Below, in pieces: positions 4,713-63,917 of a stretch of 64,000 nucleotides of DNA. The notes under the pieces are model-generated. The model was not told where the DNA came from and did no database searches. It saw only the letters and a program-made list of their open reading frames with translations. Numbering within the stretch: the first letter of the stretch is position 1; every line of letters starts with the position of its first letter. Where the stretch lies: assembly GCF_058153355.1 (NCBI RefSeq), contig NZ_CM177019.1, one strand, 5' to 3'. The position numbers and the translations under genes are program-made.

Positions 4713-4857
4713 TCAGACGATGAATTTTCTATTATAGAAAACGTTCAGTGGCACGTTTGGCGAAATTCAGAATGATTCTCAATTTGCCCGGGTGTGATAC
4801 CATTGACGACACTTACATATATATTGTCGGTATCACCGACGCTGATGGACAGAATTA

Positions 4858-5652
4858 ATGGCTATCTCAATCAAGACCCCAGAAGATATCGAAAAAATGC
4901 GCGTCGCTGGCCGACTGGCTGCCGAAGTGCTGGAAATGATCGAACCGTATGTTAAACCGGGCGTCAGCACCGGCGAGCTGGATCGCATCTGTAATGATTA
5001 CATTGTTAATGAACAACACGCGGTTTCTGCCTGCCTCGGCTATCACGGCTATCCGAAATCCGTTTGCATCTCTATTAATGAAGTGGTGTGCCACGGTATC
5101 CCGGACGACGCCAAGCTGCTGAAAGATGGCGATATCGTTAACATTGATGTCACCGTAATCAAAGATGGTTTCCACGGCGACACCTCGAAAATGTTTATCG
5201 TCGGTAAGCCGACCATCATGGGCGAACGTCTGTGCCGCGTAACGCAAGAGAGTCTTTACCTGGCGCTACGCATGGTAAAACCGGGCATTAATCTGCGCGA
5301 AATCGGCGCGGCGATTCAGAAATTTGTCGAAGCAGAAGGCTTCTCCGTCGTTCGTGAATATTGCGGACACGGTATTGGTCGCGGCTTCCATGAAGAACCG
5401 CAGGTGCTGCATTATGACTCCCGTGAAACCAACGTCGTGCTGAAGCCGGGAATGACCTTCACCATCGAGCCAATGGTCAACGCGGGCAAAAAAGAGATCC
5501 GCACCATGAAAGATGGCTGGACGGTAAAAACCAAAGATCGCAGCTTGTCTGCACAATATGAGCATACTATTGTGGTGACCGATAACGGCTGCGAAATTCT
5601 GACGCTACGCAAGGATGACACCATCCCGGCGATAATCTCGCACGAAGAATAA
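4858..5652 (+). CDS. map: methionine aminopeptidase
   Basis: 264-aa ORF MAISIKTPEDIEKMRVAGRLAAEVLEMIEPYVKPG...; synteny. Confidence 0.97.
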   Translation: MAISIKTPEDIEKMRVAGRLAAEVLEMIEPYVKPGVSTGELDRICNDYIVNEQHAVSACLGYHGYPKSVCISINEVVCHGIPDDAKLLKDGDIVNIDVTVIKDGFHGDTSKMFIVGKPTIMGERLCRVTQESLYLALRMVKPGINLREIGAAIQKFVEAEGFSVVREYCGHGIGRGFHEEPQVLHYDSRETNVVLKPGMTFTIEPMVNAGKKEIRTMKDGWTVKTKDRSLSAQYEHTIVVTDNGCEILTLRKDDTIPAIISHEE

Positions 5653-20081: not shown

Positions 20082-22064
20082 TTAACGGCTCTGCTTTCTC
20101 AACAAATAGATAAAATACGGCGCGCCGATAAAGGTCGACAGCAGCCCCGCTGGGATCTGGAATGGAAACAGCACCATCCGCCCACACCAGTCAGCGAACA
20201 CCAGCAACAATCCCCCCACCAGCGCCGAAATCACAATATGCGGCATCGTCCGTCGAAAGCCCATCATCCGCGCAATATGCGGTGCCATTAAACCAACAAA
20301 ACTCAACGGTCCAATGGTCATTGTCGCGGTCGCCGTCAGGCAAGCCGCTAACAGCAGCAGCGCAATTCGCGTCGGCGTCAGCGCCATTCCCACGGCTCGT
20401 GCGGTATCACCTCCCAGCGGTAAAATGGTCAGCCAGCGGCGGCACAGCGGGGTAATCGCCAGCAAAATCACCATCACAATTCCGGTGCGCCAGACCTGCG
20501 CATCGGTCGCGTTGTAGGTCGAACCGGAAATCCAGGTCAGAACTTGCGCCATTCGCGGGTCACCACTTGCCTGCAACATCATCAAAAGCATGGTGAACGC
20601 GGTACTTAAGGCCATCCCCGCCAGTAACATGCGGTGTGGGGAAAATCCACCGCGTCCGGCAGCGATCATAATGATCAACAGCGTCACCGCCGCGCCGAAA
20701 CTGCCCGCGGGTAACAGCCAGCCAAAGGCATTACCCGGCACCAAAAACAGCATCAACACCACACCAAACGCCGCGCCGGAACTAATCCCCAGCACTTCCG
20801 GGCTTGCCATCGGGTTGCCGGTCAGCCGCTGAATAATACAGCCCGCCACCGCCAGCATGACGCCCGCAAACAGCGCCGCCATAATTCGCGGCCAGCGCCA
20901 AGGCATCAAATCCTCGAGCAACGCCCCGCTCGCCCACGTCCAGCCGTGCGCATCACGACCAAACGACAGCGCCACCACCACAGCCATCAACAGCAGCACG
21001 CCGCCCGCGAGGGCAAACGCCAGCACATGTTGGCGTTCAGCAGCGACACGATCGTTCACCTTCATATCCGGCGCGCTAATGCAGCGTAAACGCGGCAGCA
21101 GCCACAGCAGCAGCGGCGCACCGATGAGCGCAGTGACCGAACCGGTAGAAACTTCCATCCACACGCGAGTCAGCCAGAGGATGATTTGATCGGAAAGCCA
21201 GAGGATCAGCGCACCAATCAGTGACGCCAGCAGCAGTCTTGGCAGCAGACGCCGCGCCCCCAGCATTTTTGCCAGCAGCGGCGCGAACAACCCGATAAAG
21301 CCGATAATCCCCACCGCGTTCACCAGCAGCGCACTGATGACTATCGCCAGCGACAGCGCCGCCAGACGCGCGAGCGACAAGGCCAGCCCGAGATTGCGCG
21401 CCACGCCATCATCAAGCCCCATCAGGGTTAACGGACGAAGTAGCAGTAACGTCAGCATCACGCCGCCCAGCAACTGCGGCCATAAACGCTCAACGCCACC
21501 CCAGTCGGTTTGCGTCAGCGTTCCGGTGCTCCACAGGAACATGCTTTGTAGCTGGTCGTGATGGAAGATAACCAGTAACTGATTGATTGCCCCGCAATAA
21601 AGGCTCACCACAAGCCCCGCGAGGATCAGCGTTACCGGAGAAAGCCGTTTCCCCCACGCGACGCCAAAGACAATTAAGCCAACCACACAAGCCCCTGCCA
21701 ATGCAGCAAACTGGCTCGCCATCGCACCAGGGATCGCCCAGAGTGTAGTGACAGTAATTCCCAGTTGCGCACCAGTTGCGACGCCCAACGTGGTCGGCTC
21801 CGCCAGCGGGTTACGCAGCACTTGCTGAAATAGCACGCCCACCAGCCCCAGACCCGCGCCCACCAGCAGCGAAATCGCCAGACGCGGCAGCAAGCTGTAG
21901 TGAAAAATCATCTGCTCGATGACGTCAATATCCGGCGACCAGGCAGCCTGCGCCCACTGGCTACGCGGCAGCGCCTGAGAGAAGTTCATCCAGGTGAGCA
22001 CCGCTGCGGCAACCACCAACAGCGCCAGCAATAATGCCGGGAAAAGCGCAATACGTTTACTCAC
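20082..22064 (-). CDS. fhuB: ferric hydroxamate ABC transporter permease
   Basis: 660-aa duplicated permease ORF MSKRIALFPALLLALLVVAAAVLTWMNF...; 4-nt overlap with fhuD. Confidence 0.96.
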   Translation of the reverse strand: MSKRIALFPALLLALLVVAAAVLTWMNFSQALPRSQWAQAAWSPDIDVIEQMIFHYSLLPRLAISLLVGAGLGLVGVLFQQVLRNPLAEPTTLGVATGAQLGITVTTLWAIPGAMASQFAALAGACVVGLIVFGVAWGKRLSPVTLILAGLVVSLYCGAINQLLVIFHHDQLQSMFLWSTGTLTQTDWGGVERLWPQLLGGVMLTLLLLRPLTLMGLDDGVARNLGLALSLARLAALSLAIVISALLVNAVGIIGFIGLFAPLLAKMLGARRLLPRLLLASLIGALILWLSDQIILWLTRVWMEVSTGSVTALIGAPLLLWLLPRLRCISAPDMKVNDRVAAERQHVLAFALAGGVLLLMAVVVALSFGRDAHGWTWASGALLEDLMPWRWPRIMAALFAGVMLAVAGCIIQRLTGNPMASPEVLGISSGAAFGVVLMLFLVPGNAFGWLLPAGSFGAAVTLLIIMIAAGRGGFSPHRMLLAGMALSTAFTMLLMMLQASGDPRMAQVLTWISGSTYNATDAQVWRTGIVMVILLAITPLCRRWLTILPLGGDTARAVGMALTPTRIALLLLAACLTATATMTIGPLSFVGLMAPHIARMMGFRRTMPHIVISALVGGLLLVFADWCGRMVLFPFQIPAGLLSTFIGAPYFIYLLRKQSR

Positions 22065-22951
22065 GCTTTACCTCCGATGGCGTTATCCAGAATACGCACA
22101 AAGTGCATTGCCGAGAGCGTCGCACCATAAAACCAGACTGCAGGTACGCGCTGAAAGCGTCCGGCACGGACAAACGGCATGGCCTGCCACAGCGGGGTTG
22201 CCATTAGTGCGTCCATGTCTTTGCTGTTGTCGTGATCAAAACAGAGCACATCAACGTCCTTATACGCTGCCAGACGATCGATACTGACGGCAGTACTGCC
22301 CCAGAAGTTGGTTTCCCCTTGCCAGGCATTTGGGATGCCGTACCCATCAAGAATTTCCTGGAACAAGCTGTTTGGACCGAAGACCAGCATATGGCGCGGA
22401 TCGATAAGTGTCGTCAGTAATAACGGACGCGCACCACGCTTCACAAAGCGGGGTTTCATGCTGCGGATAAAGTCTTCATAGTGCGCTAAATGCGTTTCTG
22501 CTGCGCTTTGCAGGTTAAGTAAATCTGCCATTTCCGTCAGCGATTTACGCGCCATCGCCAGCGGCTGTTTGCCGTCGCTGAAGTTAAATCCGCGCCCAGG
22601 CGCAATGCGTGCCAGCATTTCTGGTGAAGGGCCATACCCTGCCGACCAGACCATAAACGACGGCTTCATTTCGGTCAGCAGTTCAAGGTTAGGTTCTGTC
22701 CGCAAACCGACGTCAATCACCGATTCAGGTAATGGCGGTTCGCTGACCCACAGGCGATAGTTGATGGTATCCGCCACGCCGTAAGGTACGATGCCGAGCG
22801 CCAGCAGTAATTCCACCGGCAACCACTCCAGCGCCACAATACGATTGGGATCAATAGCCGCCGCGCGGGCGGTATTCATCTGCCATAACAACGGAGAAAG
22901 CGCCATCGCCGTTAACAGTCGACGGCGCGAAATAAGAGGTAAGCCGCTCAT
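22061..22951 (-). CDS. fhuD: ferric hydroxamate periplasmic binding protein
   Basis: 296 aa MSGLPLISRRRLLTAMALSPLLWQMNTARAAAIDPNRIVALEWLPVELLLALG... (second in-frame Met of the track ORF). Confidence 0.95.
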   Translation of the reverse strand: MSGLPLISRRRLLTAMALSPLLWQMNTARAAAIDPNRIVALEWLPVELLLALGIVPYGVADTINYRLWVSEPPLPESVIDVGLRTEPNLELLTEMKPSFMVWSAGYGPSPEMLARIAPGRGFNFSDGKQPLAMARKSLTEMADLLNLQSAAETHLAHYEDFIRSMKPRFVKRGARPLLLTTLIDPRHMLVFGPNSLFQEILDGYGIPNAWQGETNFWGSTAVSIDRLAAYKDVDVLCFDHDNSKDMDALMATPLWQAMPFVRAGRFQRVPAVWFYGATLSAMHFVRILDNAIGGKA

Positions 22952-23748
22952 CAATAAACAAAACTCACAGGTGCAGCACCCGCCGGATGCGGCAAAATAC
23001 CCATCGGGATGCCATAAATCATTTCGAGGGTTTCGCCGCGCATAATTTCCGCAGGCGTTCCCTGAGCAATCATTTCACCGCCGCGCAGGGCGACCAGATA
23101 ATCACAGTAACGCGCTGCCATATTGATATCGTGCAGTACGGCAATGACCGTCAGACCACGTTCCTGACTTAAACGGTGCACCAGCGCCAGCACATCAACC
23201 TGGTGGGCGATATCCAGCGCCGAGGTCGGTTCGTCCAGCAACAGACAACGGCTATCCTGCGCCACCAGCATGGCGATCCACGCCCGCTGACGTTCACCGC
23301 CTGAGAGGCTATCGACCAGCCGATGCGCCAGCGGTTTTAAGCCAACCAGCGAGATAGCCTCTTCGACCTTTTCGCGATCTGCCGCGCCAAAGCGCCCCAG
23401 CGCGCCATGCCACGGGTAACGACCAATCGCCACCAGTTCACGCACCGTCATCCCTTCTGCCGGAGGAAGCTGCTGCGGCAAATAAGCCACTTTGCGAGCA
23501 AACGCTTTGCTGCTCCAGCTTTCCAGTGGCTGGGCATCAAGAAGAATCTCCCCTTCCGACGGCGGTTGGTGACGGCCAAGCATTTTGAGCAGAGTGGATT
23601 TACCAGAACCGTTGTGACCAATCAGACCGGTCACTTTCCCGGCAGGAAAGGTTAACGACAGCGGATGCAAAAGCGTGCGCCCGGGCACACGAAAGGAGAT
23701 ATTACGCAGTGCAAAAGTGGTATCGGAATGATTCGTGTATTCCTGCAT
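22951..23748 (-). CDS. fhuC: ferric hydroxamate ABC transporter ATP-binding protein
   Basis: ORF track frame 22951..23790 trimmed to 265 aa MQEYTNHSDTTFALRNISFRVPGRTLLHPLSLTFPAGKVTGLIGHNGSGKST..., Walker A and LSGGERQR signature. Confidence 0.95.
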   Translation of the reverse strand: MQEYTNHSDTTFALRNISFRVPGRTLLHPLSLTFPAGKVTGLIGHNGSGKSTLLKMLGRHQPPSEGEILLDAQPLESWSSKAFARKVAYLPQQLPPAEGMTVRELVAIGRYPWHGALGRFGAADREKVEEAISLVGLKPLAHRLVDSLSGGERQRAWIAMLVAQDSRCLLLDEPTSALDIAHQVDVLALVHRLSQERGLTVIAVLHDINMAARYCDYLVALRGGEMIAQGTPAEIMRGETLEMIYGIPMGILPHPAGAAPVSFVY

Positions 23749-23798
23749 AACAGCCAACTTGTGAAACGGGCACGGAAATCCGTGCCCCAAAAGAGAAA

Positions 23799-26042
23799 TT
23801 AGAAACGGAAGGTTGCGGTTGCAACGACCTGACGTTCTGCGCCCCAGAAGCAGCCATAGGTATTAAAGCAGCTGGCGACGTATTCACGATCGAACAGGTT
23901 GTTGACATGCAGCGCCACGTTGGAGCCAGCCATGCCGACCCGCGCCAGATCATAACGCACTAACGCATCCACGACCGTATAACTTCCCACTTTAAAGGAG
24001 TTAGCCGGATCACCATAGCTGGAGCCAGTATAACGACCACCAGTACCCAGCGTCAGGCCAGAAAGCGGACCATCAAAGAAGGTGTAGTCAGCCCACAGCG
24101 AAGCCATATGTTTTGGCACCTGCGCAGGCGTATTGCCTTTGTAGGTAGTATCGGTGGTGTATTCCGCATCGGTGTAAGTATAAGAACCTACTACGTTAAC
24201 ACTCGCCGACAGCGCCGCTTTCGCTTCGATTTCTACGCCACGAGCGCGGATTTCACCACCTTCAACCGAGAAGAAGGAACCCTCAGGGTCCGCCATCAGG
24301 TTGTTGGTTTTAGTGAGATTATACACAGCACCAGTAACCACAATTGGGCGATCTTCCGGTACATATTTCACGCCGACCTCATACTGCTTACCTTTAGACG
24401 GCGCAAAAATATTACCATCCTTCCCAACTTGTGAAGAAGGTTCAAACGATTCGCTATAGCTGAAGTAAGGTGTTACACCATTATCAAACAGGTAGTTAAC
24501 ACCACCACGCCAGGTAAACTGTTTGTCATCACGTTTATCGGTCGTCCCTTCAACGCGGTTATGAGACTCTTGATCCGCCCAGTCATAACGACCGCCCAGG
24601 GTGACCAGCACTTTATCCCACTGCGCCTGATCCTGAACATAAACACCCGTTTGTTTCTGCTTATTCAAAATGCGGTAAGGACCGGAGTTTGCCGGATCTT
24701 TCGCATTGAAGTCGAAATCGGTATTCACCGGATTGTACAGATCGAGCAGCGGTACGGAGTCGTCGTAACCAAACCAGGCGTTGATGTCATTACGCATACG
24801 CATAAAGTCGACGCCGGTCAGCAGAGTGTGGTCGATATCGCCAGTGGCAAACTTGCTCTGCAACTGGGTATCAACGGAGAAGTTTTGCAGCTTCTCATCA
24901 TCAACGACGTATTTACGTGCCAGGTAGTGACCTTTATCGGCTGGCGCTAAAGCGGCACACTGTTTGCTGTAAGCATTCGCCGGATCGGAGCAGACGCCGT
25001 AACCATAAACGCTGTTTTGCGAGGTTTTGTTTTCAGCAAAGCGCAGGTTCTGACGCACAGTAAAGGTGTCGTTAAATTCGTGATCGAAGCTGTAGCCCAC
25101 CATCTTCTCATTACGAGAATAGGTGTTGTTCTTCGCCCCTTCGTTAAAATCTGTCGGCAGACGCTTACCGTTCGGCAGCGGCTCAACGGTTCCCTCTTTC
25201 GGCAGCCAGCCGTAATAACCGGTTTCCGGCTCGTTCTGGAAGTAAGAAAGGAAGGTGAAATTGGTTTTATCATCCGGACGCCAGGTAAACGCTGGCGCAA
25301 TGGCATAACGCTGCTCTTCCGCGCCCTTTTGCTGGGCATTGGCAGAGCGCGCAAGACCGGTCAGGCGATAAGAGTAAACACCGTCATCATCCAGCGCATC
25401 GCTAAAGTCAAAACCGGTCTGGAACAGGCTGTCAGTACCGGCTTTAAACTGAACTTCTTTCAGCGGTTCAGTAGTCGGACGCTTGCTGACCATATTCAAC
25501 AGGCCGCCAGGACTGCTTTTACCGTAAAGCACTGAAACCGGGCCACGCATAATTTCAGCGCGTTCCAGCATATACGGGTCAATGACCGCATCGTTATAGA
25601 AGTTGCCCTGCAACTTCAGGCCATTCAGATAGTTATTCTGGCTTTGGCCTTCTGCCGCAAAGCCGCGAATGATCAGGTGGTCATAGGTGTTGGATGCGCC
25701 ACGCGTACCAACAGAGACACCCGGCGTGTAGCTAAGCGCCTCTTTTACTGACTTCGGCTGATGCAGCGCCATCTCTTCGGCGGTCACAACAGAAATAGAC
25801 TGTGGCACTTTTTGAATCGGTGTATCGGTTTTGGTGCCGGTAGCGGACTGTCGCGCCGCAATAGTTGCAGCTGGCCCCCATGCGCTTTCTTGCGGCGCTG
25901 GTGCAGCGGTAACGGTGATAGTGTCTTCTTTCGGTTCAACCGCTGCCTGTGCATAAACAGACATGCCGCTAACCGCTGTGGCTACTACAACTGCAATTTT
26001 ACGCAGTGAGTGTTTTGGCTGAGCAGTTTTGGAACGCGCCAT
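23799..26042 (-). CDS. fhuA: TonB-dependent ferrichrome outer membrane transporter
   Basis: 747-aa ORF MARSKTAQPKHSLRKIAVVVATAVSGMSVYAQAAVEPKEDTITV... ending ATATFRF; differs from my recollection of K-12 FhuA at a few residues. Confidence 0.97.
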   Translation of the reverse strand: MARSKTAQPKHSLRKIAVVVATAVSGMSVYAQAAVEPKEDTITVTAAPAPQESAWGPAATIAARQSATGTKTDTPIQKVPQSISVVTAEEMALHQPKSVKEALSYTPGVSVGTRGASNTYDHLIIRGFAAEGQSQNNYLNGLKLQGNFYNDAVIDPYMLERAEIMRGPVSVLYGKSSPGGLLNMVSKRPTTEPLKEVQFKAGTDSLFQTGFDFSDALDDDGVYSYRLTGLARSANAQQKGAEEQRYAIAPAFTWRPDDKTNFTFLSYFQNEPETGYYGWLPKEGTVEPLPNGKRLPTDFNEGAKNNTYSRNEKMVGYSFDHEFNDTFTVRQNLRFAENKTSQNSVYGYGVCSDPANAYSKQCAALAPADKGHYLARKYVVDDEKLQNFSVDTQLQSKFATGDIDHTLLTGVDFMRMRNDINAWFGYDDSVPLLDLYNPVNTDFDFNAKDPANSGPYRILNKQKQTGVYVQDQAQWDKVLVTLGGRYDWADQESHNRVEGTTDKRDDKQFTWRGGVNYLFDNGVTPYFSYSESFEPSSQVGKDGNIFAPSKGKQYEVGVKYVPEDRPIVVTGAVYNLTKTNNLMADPEGSFFSVEGGEIRARGVEIEAKAALSASVNVVGSYTYTDAEYTTDTTYKGNTPAQVPKHMASLWADYTFFDGPLSGLTLGTGGRYTGSSYGDPANSFKVGSYTVVDALVRYDLARVGMAGSNVALHVNNLFDREYVASCFNTYGCFWGAERQVVATATFRF

Positions 26043-26062
26043 TGGTATATCTCTGATGTAAA

Positions 26063-26113
26063 GTGAATGATAACGTAAACGAGAATGATTATTATAAAGA
26101 TAAGATAATATTC
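26063..26113 (-). promoter_or_regulatory. Fur box cluster in fhuA promoter
   Basis: AT-rich region with overlapping GATAAT-type hexamers (gaatgataacg, gagaatgattattataaag, gataagataatattcg) 20-70 nt upstream of fhuA ATG. Confidence 0.55.
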
Positions 26114-26220
26114 GAAACGCTGGCGGGTTCGCAAGCGGTACGCAATCTGAGCATTCCTGAGGGGTTAATAAACAATCAGATGAAAAGAAAGGGTTAATAC
26201 TTTGGGTAGGATGTTATTTT

Positions 26221-26244
26221 ACCGGATGGCGACTCGCCATCCGG
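26221..26244. repeat. palindromic hairpin downstream of mrcB
   Basis: accggatggcg-ac-tcgccatccggt; no U-tract on the mrcB strand, so not called as a canonical terminator. Confidence 0.45.
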
Positions 26245-26261
26245 TATGTCACGCTTAGACG

Positions 26262-28796
26262 TTAATTACTACCAAACATATCCTTGATCCAACCTGCTAC
26301 GCCGTCACTGTCTTTCTGCTCTTGCTGAGCAGGTTGCTGTTGCGGTTGTTGCTGCGGCTGAGAAGACTGATCAAACGGATTGCCTGACGGTTGCTGCTGA
26401 ATCTCACTCTGCTGGCACAGCGATTGCGGATCGCTGGTCCAGACCGGCAAGACACGCATGCCACCGCTGCAAACAAAGTTGCCGTCGTAGTCCACGCCCA
26501 TATCTGCAATATCTTCTGGTGGAACAAGATTCAGCGGTGTTGGTGTCTGGTTAGCCAGATAACGCTGATAAATCGACATTGCCCCACTGGCACCATACAG
26601 TTTGGTCGGCTGGTTGTTATCACGGCCTACCCAGGTGATGGTCACCGTGCTGCCGTCAATGCCCGCAAACCAGGTATCCACGTTGTTGTTGGTAGTCCCG
26701 GTTTTGCCCGCCAGATGCAGGTTCGGGTATTTCGCCCCAAGCTGACGACCCGTACCGCGTTGTACCACCTGCTGCATGGTCCATAGTGTCAGATACGCCG
26801 CCTGCGCCGGAACCGCGCGTTCCGCCTGCGGGAAGCTCTGATACAACACCTTGCCATCTTCCGCGATTACCGAACGCAGCGCAGAAAGCGGTGCTCGGTT
26901 ACCACCGCTGGCGATGGTCTGGAACGCCTGCGCCACTTCAATTGGCGTTAAGTTCAACGCCCCCAGCAGCATTGCCGGAACCGGATGCAGCTGATCTTTC
27001 GGTACGCCCAGTTTAATCCAGGTATCCGTAACCGCAGGCAGCCCCAACGCCATCCCCAGATTTACCGTCGGCACGTTCATCGAACGAGTCAACGCATCCA
27101 CCAGCATCACTCTGCCACTTTCGCTATAACGACGATCATCGTTCTGCGGTGACCAGACCTGGCCATTCGGCTGACGCAGCGCGATTGGCGCATCGGCAAT
27201 CCACGTGTTCAGGCGATAGATTTTCGGCTGGCTTAAGGCCGTCAGATAAGTCGCTGGTTTTGCAAGGGAACCAATCGAACGACGCGCCTGCATCGCACGG
27301 TTGTAACCTGCAAACTGCGGCTCAGAACCACCAACCATCGCACGAACTTCACCACTAAAGCGGTCGACGACCACAATTGCCGTTTCCAGATCGCTTAACT
27401 TACGCTGTTTCTTCAGTGCCGGAATGCCTTCCACGGCGGCTTTTTCCGCCGCGTCCTGAGCCACCGAGTCAAAGGTAGTGAAGATCTTCACGCCGGAGAG
27501 ATCTTTTACCTTATCGCCTAATTTCGCCTGCAGCTCCTGACGCACCAGTTGCATAAAGGCTGGCTGTGGAGAGATTACCCCACCACGCGGCTGAACCCCC
27601 AGCGGACGTGCACTCAACATGTCATAGAGCTCTTGATCAATAATCTGCTGTTGTTGCAGCAGACGCAGCACCAGGTTACGTCGCTCCAGCGCCAGTTTCG
27701 GGTTACGCCACGGGTTGTAGATCGACGCCCCTTTCACCATACCAACCAACAGCGCCTGCTGGTCGAGACTCAGCTCTTCTACCGGGCGACCAAAGTAGTA
27801 CAGGCTCGCCAGCGGGAAACCGCGGATTTCGTTGTCGCCGCTCTGACCGAGATACACCTCGTTCATATACAGCTCAAGAATGCGGTCTTTGCTGTAACGC
27901 GCATCCATGATCAGCGCCATGTAGGCTTCGTTCGCTTTACGCCAGTAAGAGCGCTCGCTGGAGAGGAACAGGTTCTTCACCAACTGCTGGGTCAGCGTAC
28001 TGGCCCCCTGTACCGTACGACCTGCCATCAGGTTCGCCAGCACGGCACGGCCAATGGAATAGAGACTGATCCCATCATGCTCGTAGAAATGACGGTCTTC
28101 AGTCGCCAACAACGTATCCACCAGCAAGTCAGGGAACCCACTGCGCGGCACAAACAGACGCTGCTCACCGTTTGGTGAAGAGATCATGGTGATCAGGCGC
28201 GGATCAAGACGGAAGAAACCGAACTGACGGTTGTTCTCCATATTGACGATGGTCGCCAGATGATCACCATCAAAAGTCAGACGCGCACGTACCTGCCCTT
28301 CTTTACTGTCCGGGAAATCAAACGGACGGCGGATCATTTCAATGCTGTTGGCCTGCACGGTAAATTCGCCAGGGCGCGTCATTTTCGACACCTGACGATA
28401 CTGGGTCGCCTCCAGCAGCTTCACCATCTCGTTTTTGCTGATGGTCATGTCTGGCTCAAGGTTGACCATTCGGCCATAAACAGCCGCAGGCAATTGCCAG
28501 ACTTTGCCATCAATACGGCTACGAATTTTTTGATCGAGATAAACACCGTAAATGGCGATCAGCACGGCAAAAACGATAGCCAGTTTTAGCAGCAGCCATA
28601 GCCAGCCGCGTTTGCCACGAGGCTTACGCCCTTTGCCTTTGCCCTTACCTTTGCGCGGCATCGGTTCTTCATCCTCATAGTCATCATAATCGTCGTAATC
28701 ATCGTCATCTTCGTAACGACGACGGCTTACCTTTTGTTTGACCGGACGCGTCGGTTTCCCTTTGCGTCCAATTGGCTCGCGGTCATTCCCGGCCAT
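26262..28796 (-). CDS. mrcB: penicillin-binding protein 1B (bifunctional glycosyltransferase/transpeptidase)
   Basis: ORF track frame 26262..28811 trimmed to 844 aa [56 protein letters not shown]... Confidence 0.96.
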
Positions 28797-28889
28797 GCTT
28801 TTTCTCCGCAATATTCAGGCGCAAAAGCCCGATTTTCTGTTCTTCTGTAACAAGACAGAAGAAGATATCTCTCAAATTTACTTTGGTCT

Positions 28890-62066: not shown

Positions 62067-63917
62067 ATGAAAATGACTTTGCCGTTTAAACCCCATGTGC
62101 TGGCACTAATTTGCAGTGCCGGGCTTTGTGCCGCCTCTGCCGGGCTATATATAAAAAGCCGCACACATGAAGCGCCTGTGGAACCGCAATCGACACAACT
62201 GGCTGCGCCTGACATCACCGCAGTTACGCTTCCTGCAACGGTTTCCGCACCGCCCGTAACGCCCGCCGTCGTTAAAACCGCATTCAGCACTGCGCAAATA
62301 GATCAATGGGTTGCACCTGTCGCGCTGTACCCCGACTCTCTGCTTTCACAAGTGTTAATGGCATCAACCTATCCGACAAACGTTGCGCAAGCAGTGCAAT
62401 GGTCGCACGATAATCCACTTAAACAAGGCAATGCTACTATTCAGGCGGTATCTGACCAGCCGTGGGACGCCAGCGTCAAATCGCTGGTGGCTTTTCCGCA
62501 ATTGATGGCGTTAATGGGCGAAAACCCGCAGTGGGTGCAAAATCTTGGCGACGCATTTCTGGCGCAACCACAGGACGTAATGGACTCAGTACAGCGTTTA
62601 CGACAACTGGCGCAACAAACGGGGTCGCTGAAGTCATCAACCGAACAAAAGGTCATCACGACAACGAAAAAAGTCGTACCGGCAAATCAGCCCGCTAGCG
62701 CCTCCGCAATACAATCAAATCCCATTTCTACGTCCAGCCCCGTCGTCGCAGGACCTGCACCGACCGTAATAACCATCGAACCCGCCAATCCGGATATGGT
62801 TTATATTCCCAACTACAACCCGACCGTGGTTTACGGGAACTGGGCCAATACTGCGTATCCGCCAGTTTATCTGCCGCCGCCAGCCGGAGAACCGTTTGTT
62901 GACAGCTTTGTGCGCGGATTCGGCTACAGCATGGGCGTTGCTACTACATACGCACTATTCAGCAGCATCGACTGGGATGACGACGATCATGACCATCATC
63001 ATGACGATGATGATTATCATCACCACGATGGCGGTCATCGTGACGGTAATGGCTGGCAACACAACGGCGACAACATCAATATCAACGTCAACAATTTCAA
63101 CCGTATCACCGGTGAGCATCTTACTGATAAGAATATGGCATGGCGGCACAATCCAAACTACCGTAATGGTGTGCCCTATCATGATCAGGATATGGCAAAG
63201 CGGTTTCACCAAACCGATGTCAACGGCGGCATGAGCGCCACGCAGTTACCTGCTCCAACACGCGACAGCCAGCGTCAGGCGGCAGCAAGTCAGTTTCAGC
63301 AACGAACACACGCCACACCCGTCATTACGCGAGATACCCAACGTCAGGCAGCGGCACAGCGGTTTAATGAAGCTGAACACTATGGGAGCTATGACGACTT
63401 CCGCGACTTCAGCCGTCGCCAACCACTGACCCAGCAACAAAAGGACGCCGCTCGTCAGCGTTATCAGTCGGCCTCTCCTGAGCAGCGCCAGGCAGTCCGC
63501 GAGAGAATGCAGACTAACCCGCAGAACCAGCAGAGAAGAGAAGCGGCACGTGAGCGTATTCAGTCAGCCTCGCCTGAGCAGCGCCAGGCGGTTCGCGAGA
63601 AAATGCAGACTAACCCACAGAACCAGCAGCGAAGAGAGGCAGCGCGTGAGCGTATTCAATCTGCCTCGCCTGAGCAGCGCCAGGTGTTTAGGGAAAAAGT
63701 ACAGCAGCACCCACTGAACCAACAGCAACGTGATAACGCCCGCCAGCGTATACAATCGGCATCACCTGAACAACGTCAGGTTTTTCGGGAGAAAGTTCAG
63801 GAGAGCCGCCCACAACGTCTAAACGACAGTAACCATACTGCCAGGCTGAATAACGAGCAACGGTCAGCAGTACGCGAACGTCTCTCTGAGCACGGAGCAA
63901 GGCGACTGGAAAGGTAA
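62067..63917 (+). CDS. yacH: DUF3300 family protein YacH with C-terminal 32-aa tandem repeats
   Basis: 616-aa ORF with signal peptide MKMTLPFKPHVLALICSAGLCAASA, Asp/His-rich tract and repeated ARERIQSASPEQRQAVRE units; position between acnB and lpd. Confidence 0.85.
   Translation: MKMTLPFKPHVLALICSAGLCAASAGLYIKSRTHEAPVEPQSTQLAAPDITAVTLPATVSAPPVTPAVVKTAFSTAQIDQWVAPVALYPDSLLSQVLMASTYPTNVAQAVQWSHDNPLKQGNATIQAVSDQPWDASVKSLVAFPQLMALMGENPQWVQNLGDAFLAQPQDVMDSVQRLRQLAQQTGSLKSSTEQKVITTTKKVVPANQPASASAIQSNPISTSSPVVAGPAPTVITIEPANPDMVYIPNYNPTVVYGNWANTAYPPVYLPPPAGEPFVDSFVRGFGYSMGVATTYALFSSIDWDDDDHDHHHDDDDYHHHDGGHRDGNGWQHNGDNININVNNFNRITGEHLTDKNMAWRHNPNYRNGVPYHDQDMAKRFHQTDVNGGMSATQLPAPTRDSQRQAAASQFQQRTHATPVITRDTQRQAAAQRFNEAEHYGSYDDFRDFSRRQPLTQQQKDAARQRYQSASPEQRQAVRERMQTNPQNQQRREAARERIQSASPEQRQAVREKMQTNPQNQQRREAARERIQSASPEQRQVFREKVQQHPLNQQQRDNARQRIQSASPEQRQVFREKVQESRPQRLNDSNHTARLNNEQRSAVRERLSEHGARRLER
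63450..63815 (+). repeat. 96-bp in-frame tandem repeat (about 3.8 copies) within yacH
   Basis: Units starting 63450, 63546, 63642, 63738; each encodes ~32 aa AR(Q/E)R(Y/I)QSASPEQRQ(AV/VF)RE(R/K)(M/V)Q... Confidence 0.85.

Follow-up and report, generated by a model that had tools for sequence, protein, structure and literature searches.

The locus between mrcB and fhuA raises the question of whether the AT-rich hexamers upstream of the ferrichrome transporter gene form a Fur operator, and, if they do, where this operator lies relative to the promoter. Besides importing ferrichrome, FhuA is the receptor for phages T1, T5 and phi80, for colicin M and for albomycin. In the 64,000-nt stretch of DNA analysed here (the window), the first-pass annotation had taken two GATAAT-like strings located 39-72 nt before the fhuA ATG, gagaatgattattataaag (26081-26099) and gataagataatattcg (26099-26114; both given as + strand), for a cluster of Fur boxes subjecting the fhuACDB operon to repression by iron. 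The analysis here presented indicates, with a probability of about 0.93, that positions 26078-26096 constitute the Fur operator of fhuACDB, consisting of one high-affinity 19-bp dimer site and, in 6-bp phase with it, one or two weak ones. Sequence match, rank within the window, position relative to the published transcription start and conservation are contributed by this analysis, and Fur binding in vitro and in vivo, together with Fur-dependent repression, by the literature on the identical sequence of E. coli K-12.

The fhu Locus and Its Relation to E. coli K-12

The mrcB-fhuA intergenic region comprises 219 nt (26043-26261), with both flanking genes on the minus strand. The features of the locus are collected in Table 1; the true start of fhuC is probably placed 14 codons inside the listed ORF. 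Alignment with K-12 MG1655 showed no difference in the fhuA start codon and the ~135 nt that precede it. All 10 differences lie in the half of the intergenic region distal to fhuA, and a window position x could be converted into K-12 numbering as 167484 + (26042 - x). A segment of 501 nt around the intergenic region matched 5424 of 5426 complete E. coli genomes, in which the flanking genes are annotated as mrcB and fhuA, and an 81-nt core was found in 5421 of the 5426, with at least 99% identity in 3808 of them. The Shine-Dalgarno-like AGAG is kept in 15 of 16 representative orthologous sequences, the outlier (L061) having AGGG.

Table 1. Features of the mrcB-fhuA intergenic region and flanking genes, in window coordinates.
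Feature	Position	Strand	Basis and remarks
mrcB	26262-28811	minus	upstream neighbour of fhuA
-35 hexamer TTGCGA	26129-26134	minus	promoter consensus scan; 18-nt spacer to -10
-10 hexamer TATTAT	26105-26110	minus	promoter consensus scan; inside gataagataatattcg
fhuACDB transcription start	26098-26099	minus	Cappable-seq via identical K-12 sequence; 5' UTR of 56-57 nt
Primary Fur site, 9-1-9 inverted repeat, TATAATAATCATTCTCGTT on gene strand	26078-26096, centre 26087	minus	matrix, K-12 identity, conservation
Weak second Fur walker, 6 nt upstream of the main one	26084-26102, centre 26093	minus	matrix, 4.1 bits
Invariant block TTACGTTATCATTCA (+21 to +35)	26064-26078	minus	identical to proximal Salmonella HypT footprint
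Candidate distal HypT-like site AACCCTTTCTTTTCA	26181-26195	minus	one mismatch to distal Salmonella HypT footprint AACCCTTCCTTTTCA; sequence comparison only
Shine-Dalgarno-like AGAG	26051-26054	minus	read from sequence; 8 nt before fhuA ATG
fhuA (ferrichrome outer-membrane transporter), 747 aa	23799-26042	minus	NF007465 equivalog, 1472.6 bits; ATG at 26042
fhuC, fhuD, fhuB	20082-23790 (listed ORFs 22951-23790, 22061-22954, 20082-22064)	minus	NCBIfam equivalogs NF007863, NF007864, NF007865

Regarding the origin of the window, its 501-nt promoter region reaches at least 99% identity in only 15 of the 5424 matching E. coli genomes, and its FhuA shares 99% identity with the protein of Escherichia whittamii Sa2BVA5 (L014), both observations pointing to a minority Escherichia lineage or a minority fhuA allele. 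At the other end of the intergenic region, 16 nt past the mrcB stop codon, a hairpin with a 12-bp stem is predicted (26220-26246, minus strand; -24.3 kcal/mol, z = -5.3), which is also present in K-12 with a G-U change. As AAAAUAAC comes next, and no U-tract, the hairpin does not qualify as a canonical intrinsic terminator for transcription in the mrcB direction.

A Single Strong Fur Site Upstream of fhuA

Fur sites were scored with a symmetric log-odds matrix of 22 bits of information, built from 15 K-12 sites with fhuA left out. These training sites are those marked as footprinted or gel-shifted in Chen et al. 2007 (PMC2189734, Table 4); each was placed from the annotated gene start and the published offset, and the 9-1-9 repeat is visible in all 15. 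The site centred at 26087 scored 20.9 bits, within the training range of 19.9-29.6, and ranked first among the ~64,000 positions of the window; chance alone would give 0.003 hits of this quality in 64 kb of sequence and 1e-4 in the intergenic region with its high AT content. Thus, the Fur matrix scan that had been proposed as a check on the first-pass annotation returned a high score, the top one of the window, rather than a low one.

The second-best match in the window, ATTCAGAATGATTCTCAAT at 4765-4783 (centre 4774, 18.1 bits), lies in the map-rpsB intergenic region, 84 nt ahead of the map start codon (ATG at 4858, + strand), and corresponds to ~K-12 189590. This position falls within an independent published Fur ChIP-exo peak, K-12 189588-189600, assigned to map/glnD/dapD (Gao 2023, PMC10164565 supplement), which validates the matrix.

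Around the main site, the hexamer arrangement is likewise exceptional within the window. When read as a phased array of seven GATAAT units, positions 26063-26104 (GTGAAT GATAAC GTAAAC GAGAAT GATTAT TATAAA GATAAG) give 31 of 42 matches, the maximum for both strands of the window (mean 10.2, sd 3.2). In matrix terms, the walkers in 6-nt phase amount to a strong one, a weak one at +6 (centre 26093) and one near zero at -6 (centre 26081, -2.1 bits), and no other Fur site was detected between 26055 and 26125, all remaining scores being clearly negative. Other genera have a weakened walker at 26093, or none, and show one at -6, on the downstream side, instead. In the K-12 fhuA cluster, three walkers above 0 bits were described over 31 bp (Chen et al. 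2007, PMC2189734).

The classical consensus GATAATGATAATCATTATC was tried and discarded as evidence: it is matched at 14 of 19 positions by the site but also by 11 other 19-mers of the window. A run of GATGAT-type triplets at 62976-63030 reaches up to 16 of 19 matches to this consensus and 13.9 bits at 63012; its period of three points to a repeat within a coding sequence more than to an operator. Additionally, a weak Fur-like 19-mer of 5.5 bits (26258-26276) overlaps the mrcB stop codon, is kept in other Escherichia loci (L014, L015, L022), and adjoins another of the K-12 Fur ChIP-exo peaks, 167218-167254 (window 26272-26308).

Fur Binding and Repression at the Identical K-12 Sequence

Window position 26087 corresponds to K-12 167439, which is exactly the centre reported for the K-12 fhuA cluster, at -45 from the ATG and with 19.5 bits, by Chen et al. 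2007 (PMC2189734). In that study an fhuA oligonucleotide was gel-shifted with 150 nM Fur, evidence coded as G and not as F (footprint). The comparison with a footprinted K-12 operator, also envisaged by the first-pass annotation, hence holds as far as the site itself is concerned, this being identical, but the term footprinted does not: Chen et al. 2007 provides a gel shift only (the sole code that its Table 4 gives for fhuA), the accessible literature contained no DNase footprint of Fur at fhuA, and the in vivo mapping is by ChIP-exo.

Fur ChIP-exo peaks were reported at 167456-167466 in MG1655 and at 167456-167468 in W3110, those at fhuA being observed under iron-replete conditions only (Gao 2023, PMC10164565 and supplement), and two more Fur peaks are given for MG1655, at 167218-167254 and 167641-167672. 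The MG1655 peak at 167456-167466 is situated 17-27 nt downstream of the matrix centre, and the exact extent of Fur occupancy is thus not fixed. As for function, deletion of fur raises fhuA expression in 8 of 9 E. coli strains, by log2 1.07-5.0 (2- to 32-fold), the derepression in MG1655 being modest (log2 1.09) under the conditions of that study (Gao 2023, PMC10164565), and a PfhuA-lacZ fusion is repressed by Fur (Beauchene 2015, PMC4676285).

Promoter, Transcription Start and the Second String

Two Cappable-seq data sets locate the start of fhuACDB transcription. A + strand start at K-12 167428, with a relative read score of 31.4, is listed by Ettwiller et al. 2016, and fhuA transcripts starting at 167427 (506 reads) were obtained by SMRT-Cappable-seq (Yan et al. 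2018); both refer to MG1655 grown without strong iron limitation, in rich medium or M9. In the window, the start is situated 7 nt downstream of TATTAT, and TTGCGA, the 18-nt spacer, TATTAT and this distance to the start all conform to a sigma-70 promoter. The same organization is displayed by the 73 unique orthologous promoters, with a TTGCNA -35 in 67, an 18-nt spacer in all of them and a TATTAT -10 in 62. Relative to the Cappable-seq start, the main Fur site occupies +3 to +21, beginning 2 nt past 26098 and 9 nt past the -10 hexamer.

Consequently, the two strings proposed as a Fur box cluster have different fates. Both are present, and the first one holds the Fur site of matrix-level quality; the second one spans the promoter from the -10 hexamer through the discriminator to the transcription start, and is not part of the Fur cluster. 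Considered as a Fur box, the string at 26099-26114 was rejected, as 19-mers centred within it score -3.3 bits at best and its GATAAG is not conserved: outside Escherichia, positions 26104-26097 (GATAAG on the other strand) are GC-rich and GCTGCGGT-like.

A different promoter has been placed at this locus, in which Fur would cover the -10 element. This arrangement, with TATAAT at 26096-26091 and a start at 26084, is implied by the numbering of the Salmonella HypT paper (PMC6397515), and it has in its favour that the TATAAT is perfect and that such a promoter would be hidden under bound Fur, in which case it could escape the available data sets. Nonetheless, (i) the 26084 start traces to Huerta and Collado-Vides 2003, a computational prediction and not a mapping, (ii) no start is listed by Ettwiller et al. 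2016 in K-12 167430-167459, (iii) no acceptable -35 hexamer is found 15-18 nt upstream of this TATAAT, and (iv) its first T is a C in 53 of the 73 orthologous promoters. This makes the alternative arrangement improbable, and the start at 26098/26099 is the one used here.

The pentamer TTTCG of the minus strand (26113-26117) hardly varies among more than 20 genera, which is unexpected for a position within the 18-nt spacer. An RNA element in the fhuA 5' UTR was considered and dismissed, the leader being predicted as unstructured (MFE -2.4 kcal/mol, z = +1.3) and giving no Rfam match at E ≤ 1.

Conservation across Enterobacteria

A scan of one genome per species yielded 78 fhuA loci, 77 of them usable, from more than 20 enterobacterial genera, including Escherichia, Salmonella, Citrobacter, Enterobacter, Klebsiella, Kosakonia, Leclercia, Buttiauxella, Hafnia and Ewingella. 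In every one of the 77, the orthologous site is the best Fur match in the 300 nt preceding fhuA, with scores of 12.3-22.6 bits; for the 72 loci in which the match starts at the ATG, it is situated 43-49 nt upstream (12.3-21.0 bits). The conserved core reads [C/T]ATAATAAT[A/C]ATT[C/A]TCGTT. Over the 73 unique upstream regions, column identity is 89% across the Fur 19-mer vs. 60-68% in the flanking intergenic DNA, and positions 26095-26064 are nearly invariant in their alignment.

These data also bear on another account of the AT-rich hexamers, namely that they are only sigma-70 promoter elements, -10-like TATAAT or TATTAT, with no regulator site among them. The second string does contain a real -10 hexamer and the start site, and a perfect TATAAT (26096-26091) lies within the Fur 19-mer. 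However, the 19-mer reaches the score level of proven Fur sites and comes first in the window, the invariant block reaches 30 nt past the start, far beyond what a promoter needs, and the identical K-12 sequence displays a gel shift, ChIP-exo peaks and derepression in Δfur strains, so that an account of the hexamers without a regulator is hardly credible. The proposal of a Fur operator in the fhuA promoter through which iron represses fhuACDB is, on the contrary, borne out by the equivalog assignment of the genes, the identity with K-12, the 77 loci and the published work.

A Conserved Block Downstream of the Fur Site

The block at 26064-26078 shows 97% column identity over the 73 sequences, being as conserved as the Fur site, and the Fur matrix gives it only -8 to -13 bits. 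In the fhuA promoter of Salmonella Typhimurium, HypT sites have been footprinted with DNase (Jo et al. 2019 PNAS, PMC6397515), and the window contains counterparts of both, with identities of 15/15 and 14/15 and 102 nt between them, in line with a spacing of ~100 bp. The MG1655 Fur ChIP-exo peak at 167456-167466 (window 26060-26070) also overlaps this block. The block may represent a HypT site or an extended stretch of Fur occupancy, and possibly the two at once.

A composite operator is accordingly conceivable, in which HypT, a LysR-type regulator whose gene is located outside the window, would bind 26064-26078 and 26181-26195 and repress under hypochlorite stress via promoter looping, with 26063-26080 being a HypT site and not a Fur box. 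The identity of TTACGTTATCATTCA with a footprinted site, the single nucleotide by which the distal site differs, and the strong conservation of a block that stays below -8 bits for Fur are all consistent with it. On the other side, HypT binding has been demonstrated in Salmonella only, the block is also invariant in genera that may lack HypT, and the Fur peak over it may reflect extended Fur occupancy. Such a composite operator is therefore quite possible without being probable, and it would supplement the Fur explanation rather than replace it.

A broader formulation can also be considered, in which the operator is larger than the Fur box, 26064-26080 (17 nt, +19 to +35; over more than 20 genera no less invariant than the Fur site) being a separate conserved element that integrates a second signal, and in which the start and promoter annotation copied for fhuA is perhaps misplaced by 14 nt. 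Candidates for the element are a non-canonical Fur half-site, a HypT site and, within the leader, the target of some unknown factor. We consider this formulation rather unlikely as a whole, and the 19-bp Fur site at 26078-26096 with its weak neighbours is retained as the operator.

Proposed Mechanism and Significance

When iron is sufficient, Fe2+-Fur would occupy 26078-26096, possibly spreading a few turns, and the bound repressor would stop RNA polymerase from forming the open complex or from clearing the promoter, with fhuACDB being repressed as a result. When iron is scarce, Fur would depart and the sigma-70 promoter TTGCGA-N18-TATTAT would fire. Since the Fur site is found at +3 to +21, Fur probably blocks RNA polymerase at the start or just after it, a steric mechanism deduced solely from position.

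The fhuA Fur operator was already known; it is real, strongly conserved and ordinary. The genome under study carries canonical, intact Fur control of ferrichrome uptake, which matters little beyond annotation. Two corrections are nonetheless useful: the main Fur site is found just downstream of the mapped start instead of covering the -10 hexamer of the promoter that had been predicted, and the AT-rich string upstream of it is a conserved -10 element, and not a second Fur box.

Comparison with Known Systems

The site in the window shares its centre and its score class (20.9 vs. 19.5 bits) with the K-12 fhuA Fur cluster described by Chen et al. 2007, and no difference of substance separates them. 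In the Fur operators regarded as classical for siderophore genes (fepA-fes, entC, fhuF, cirA and fecA), the same 9-1-9 repeat, AATGATAATNATTATCATT, is located, as at fhuA, by the sigma-70 promoter of an iron-uptake gene, and its weaker neighbours in 6-bp phase have a possible parallel in the weak walkers of fhuA. By contrast, fhuA has a single strong dimer site, the left arm of which (TATAATAAT) is devoid of the G of the TGATAAT half-site consensus, and the site is placed just past the mapped start rather than over the -35 and -10 hexamers. The fhuA promoter of Salmonella Typhimurium (Jo et al. 2019) has the same architecture as that of the window, with an identical proximal HypT 15-mer and a single mismatch in the distal site; the start used in that study (PMC6397515) was predicted computationally and falls 14 nt downstream of the one mapped by Cappable-seq, with the TATAAT at 26096-26091 taken as the -10 hexamer.
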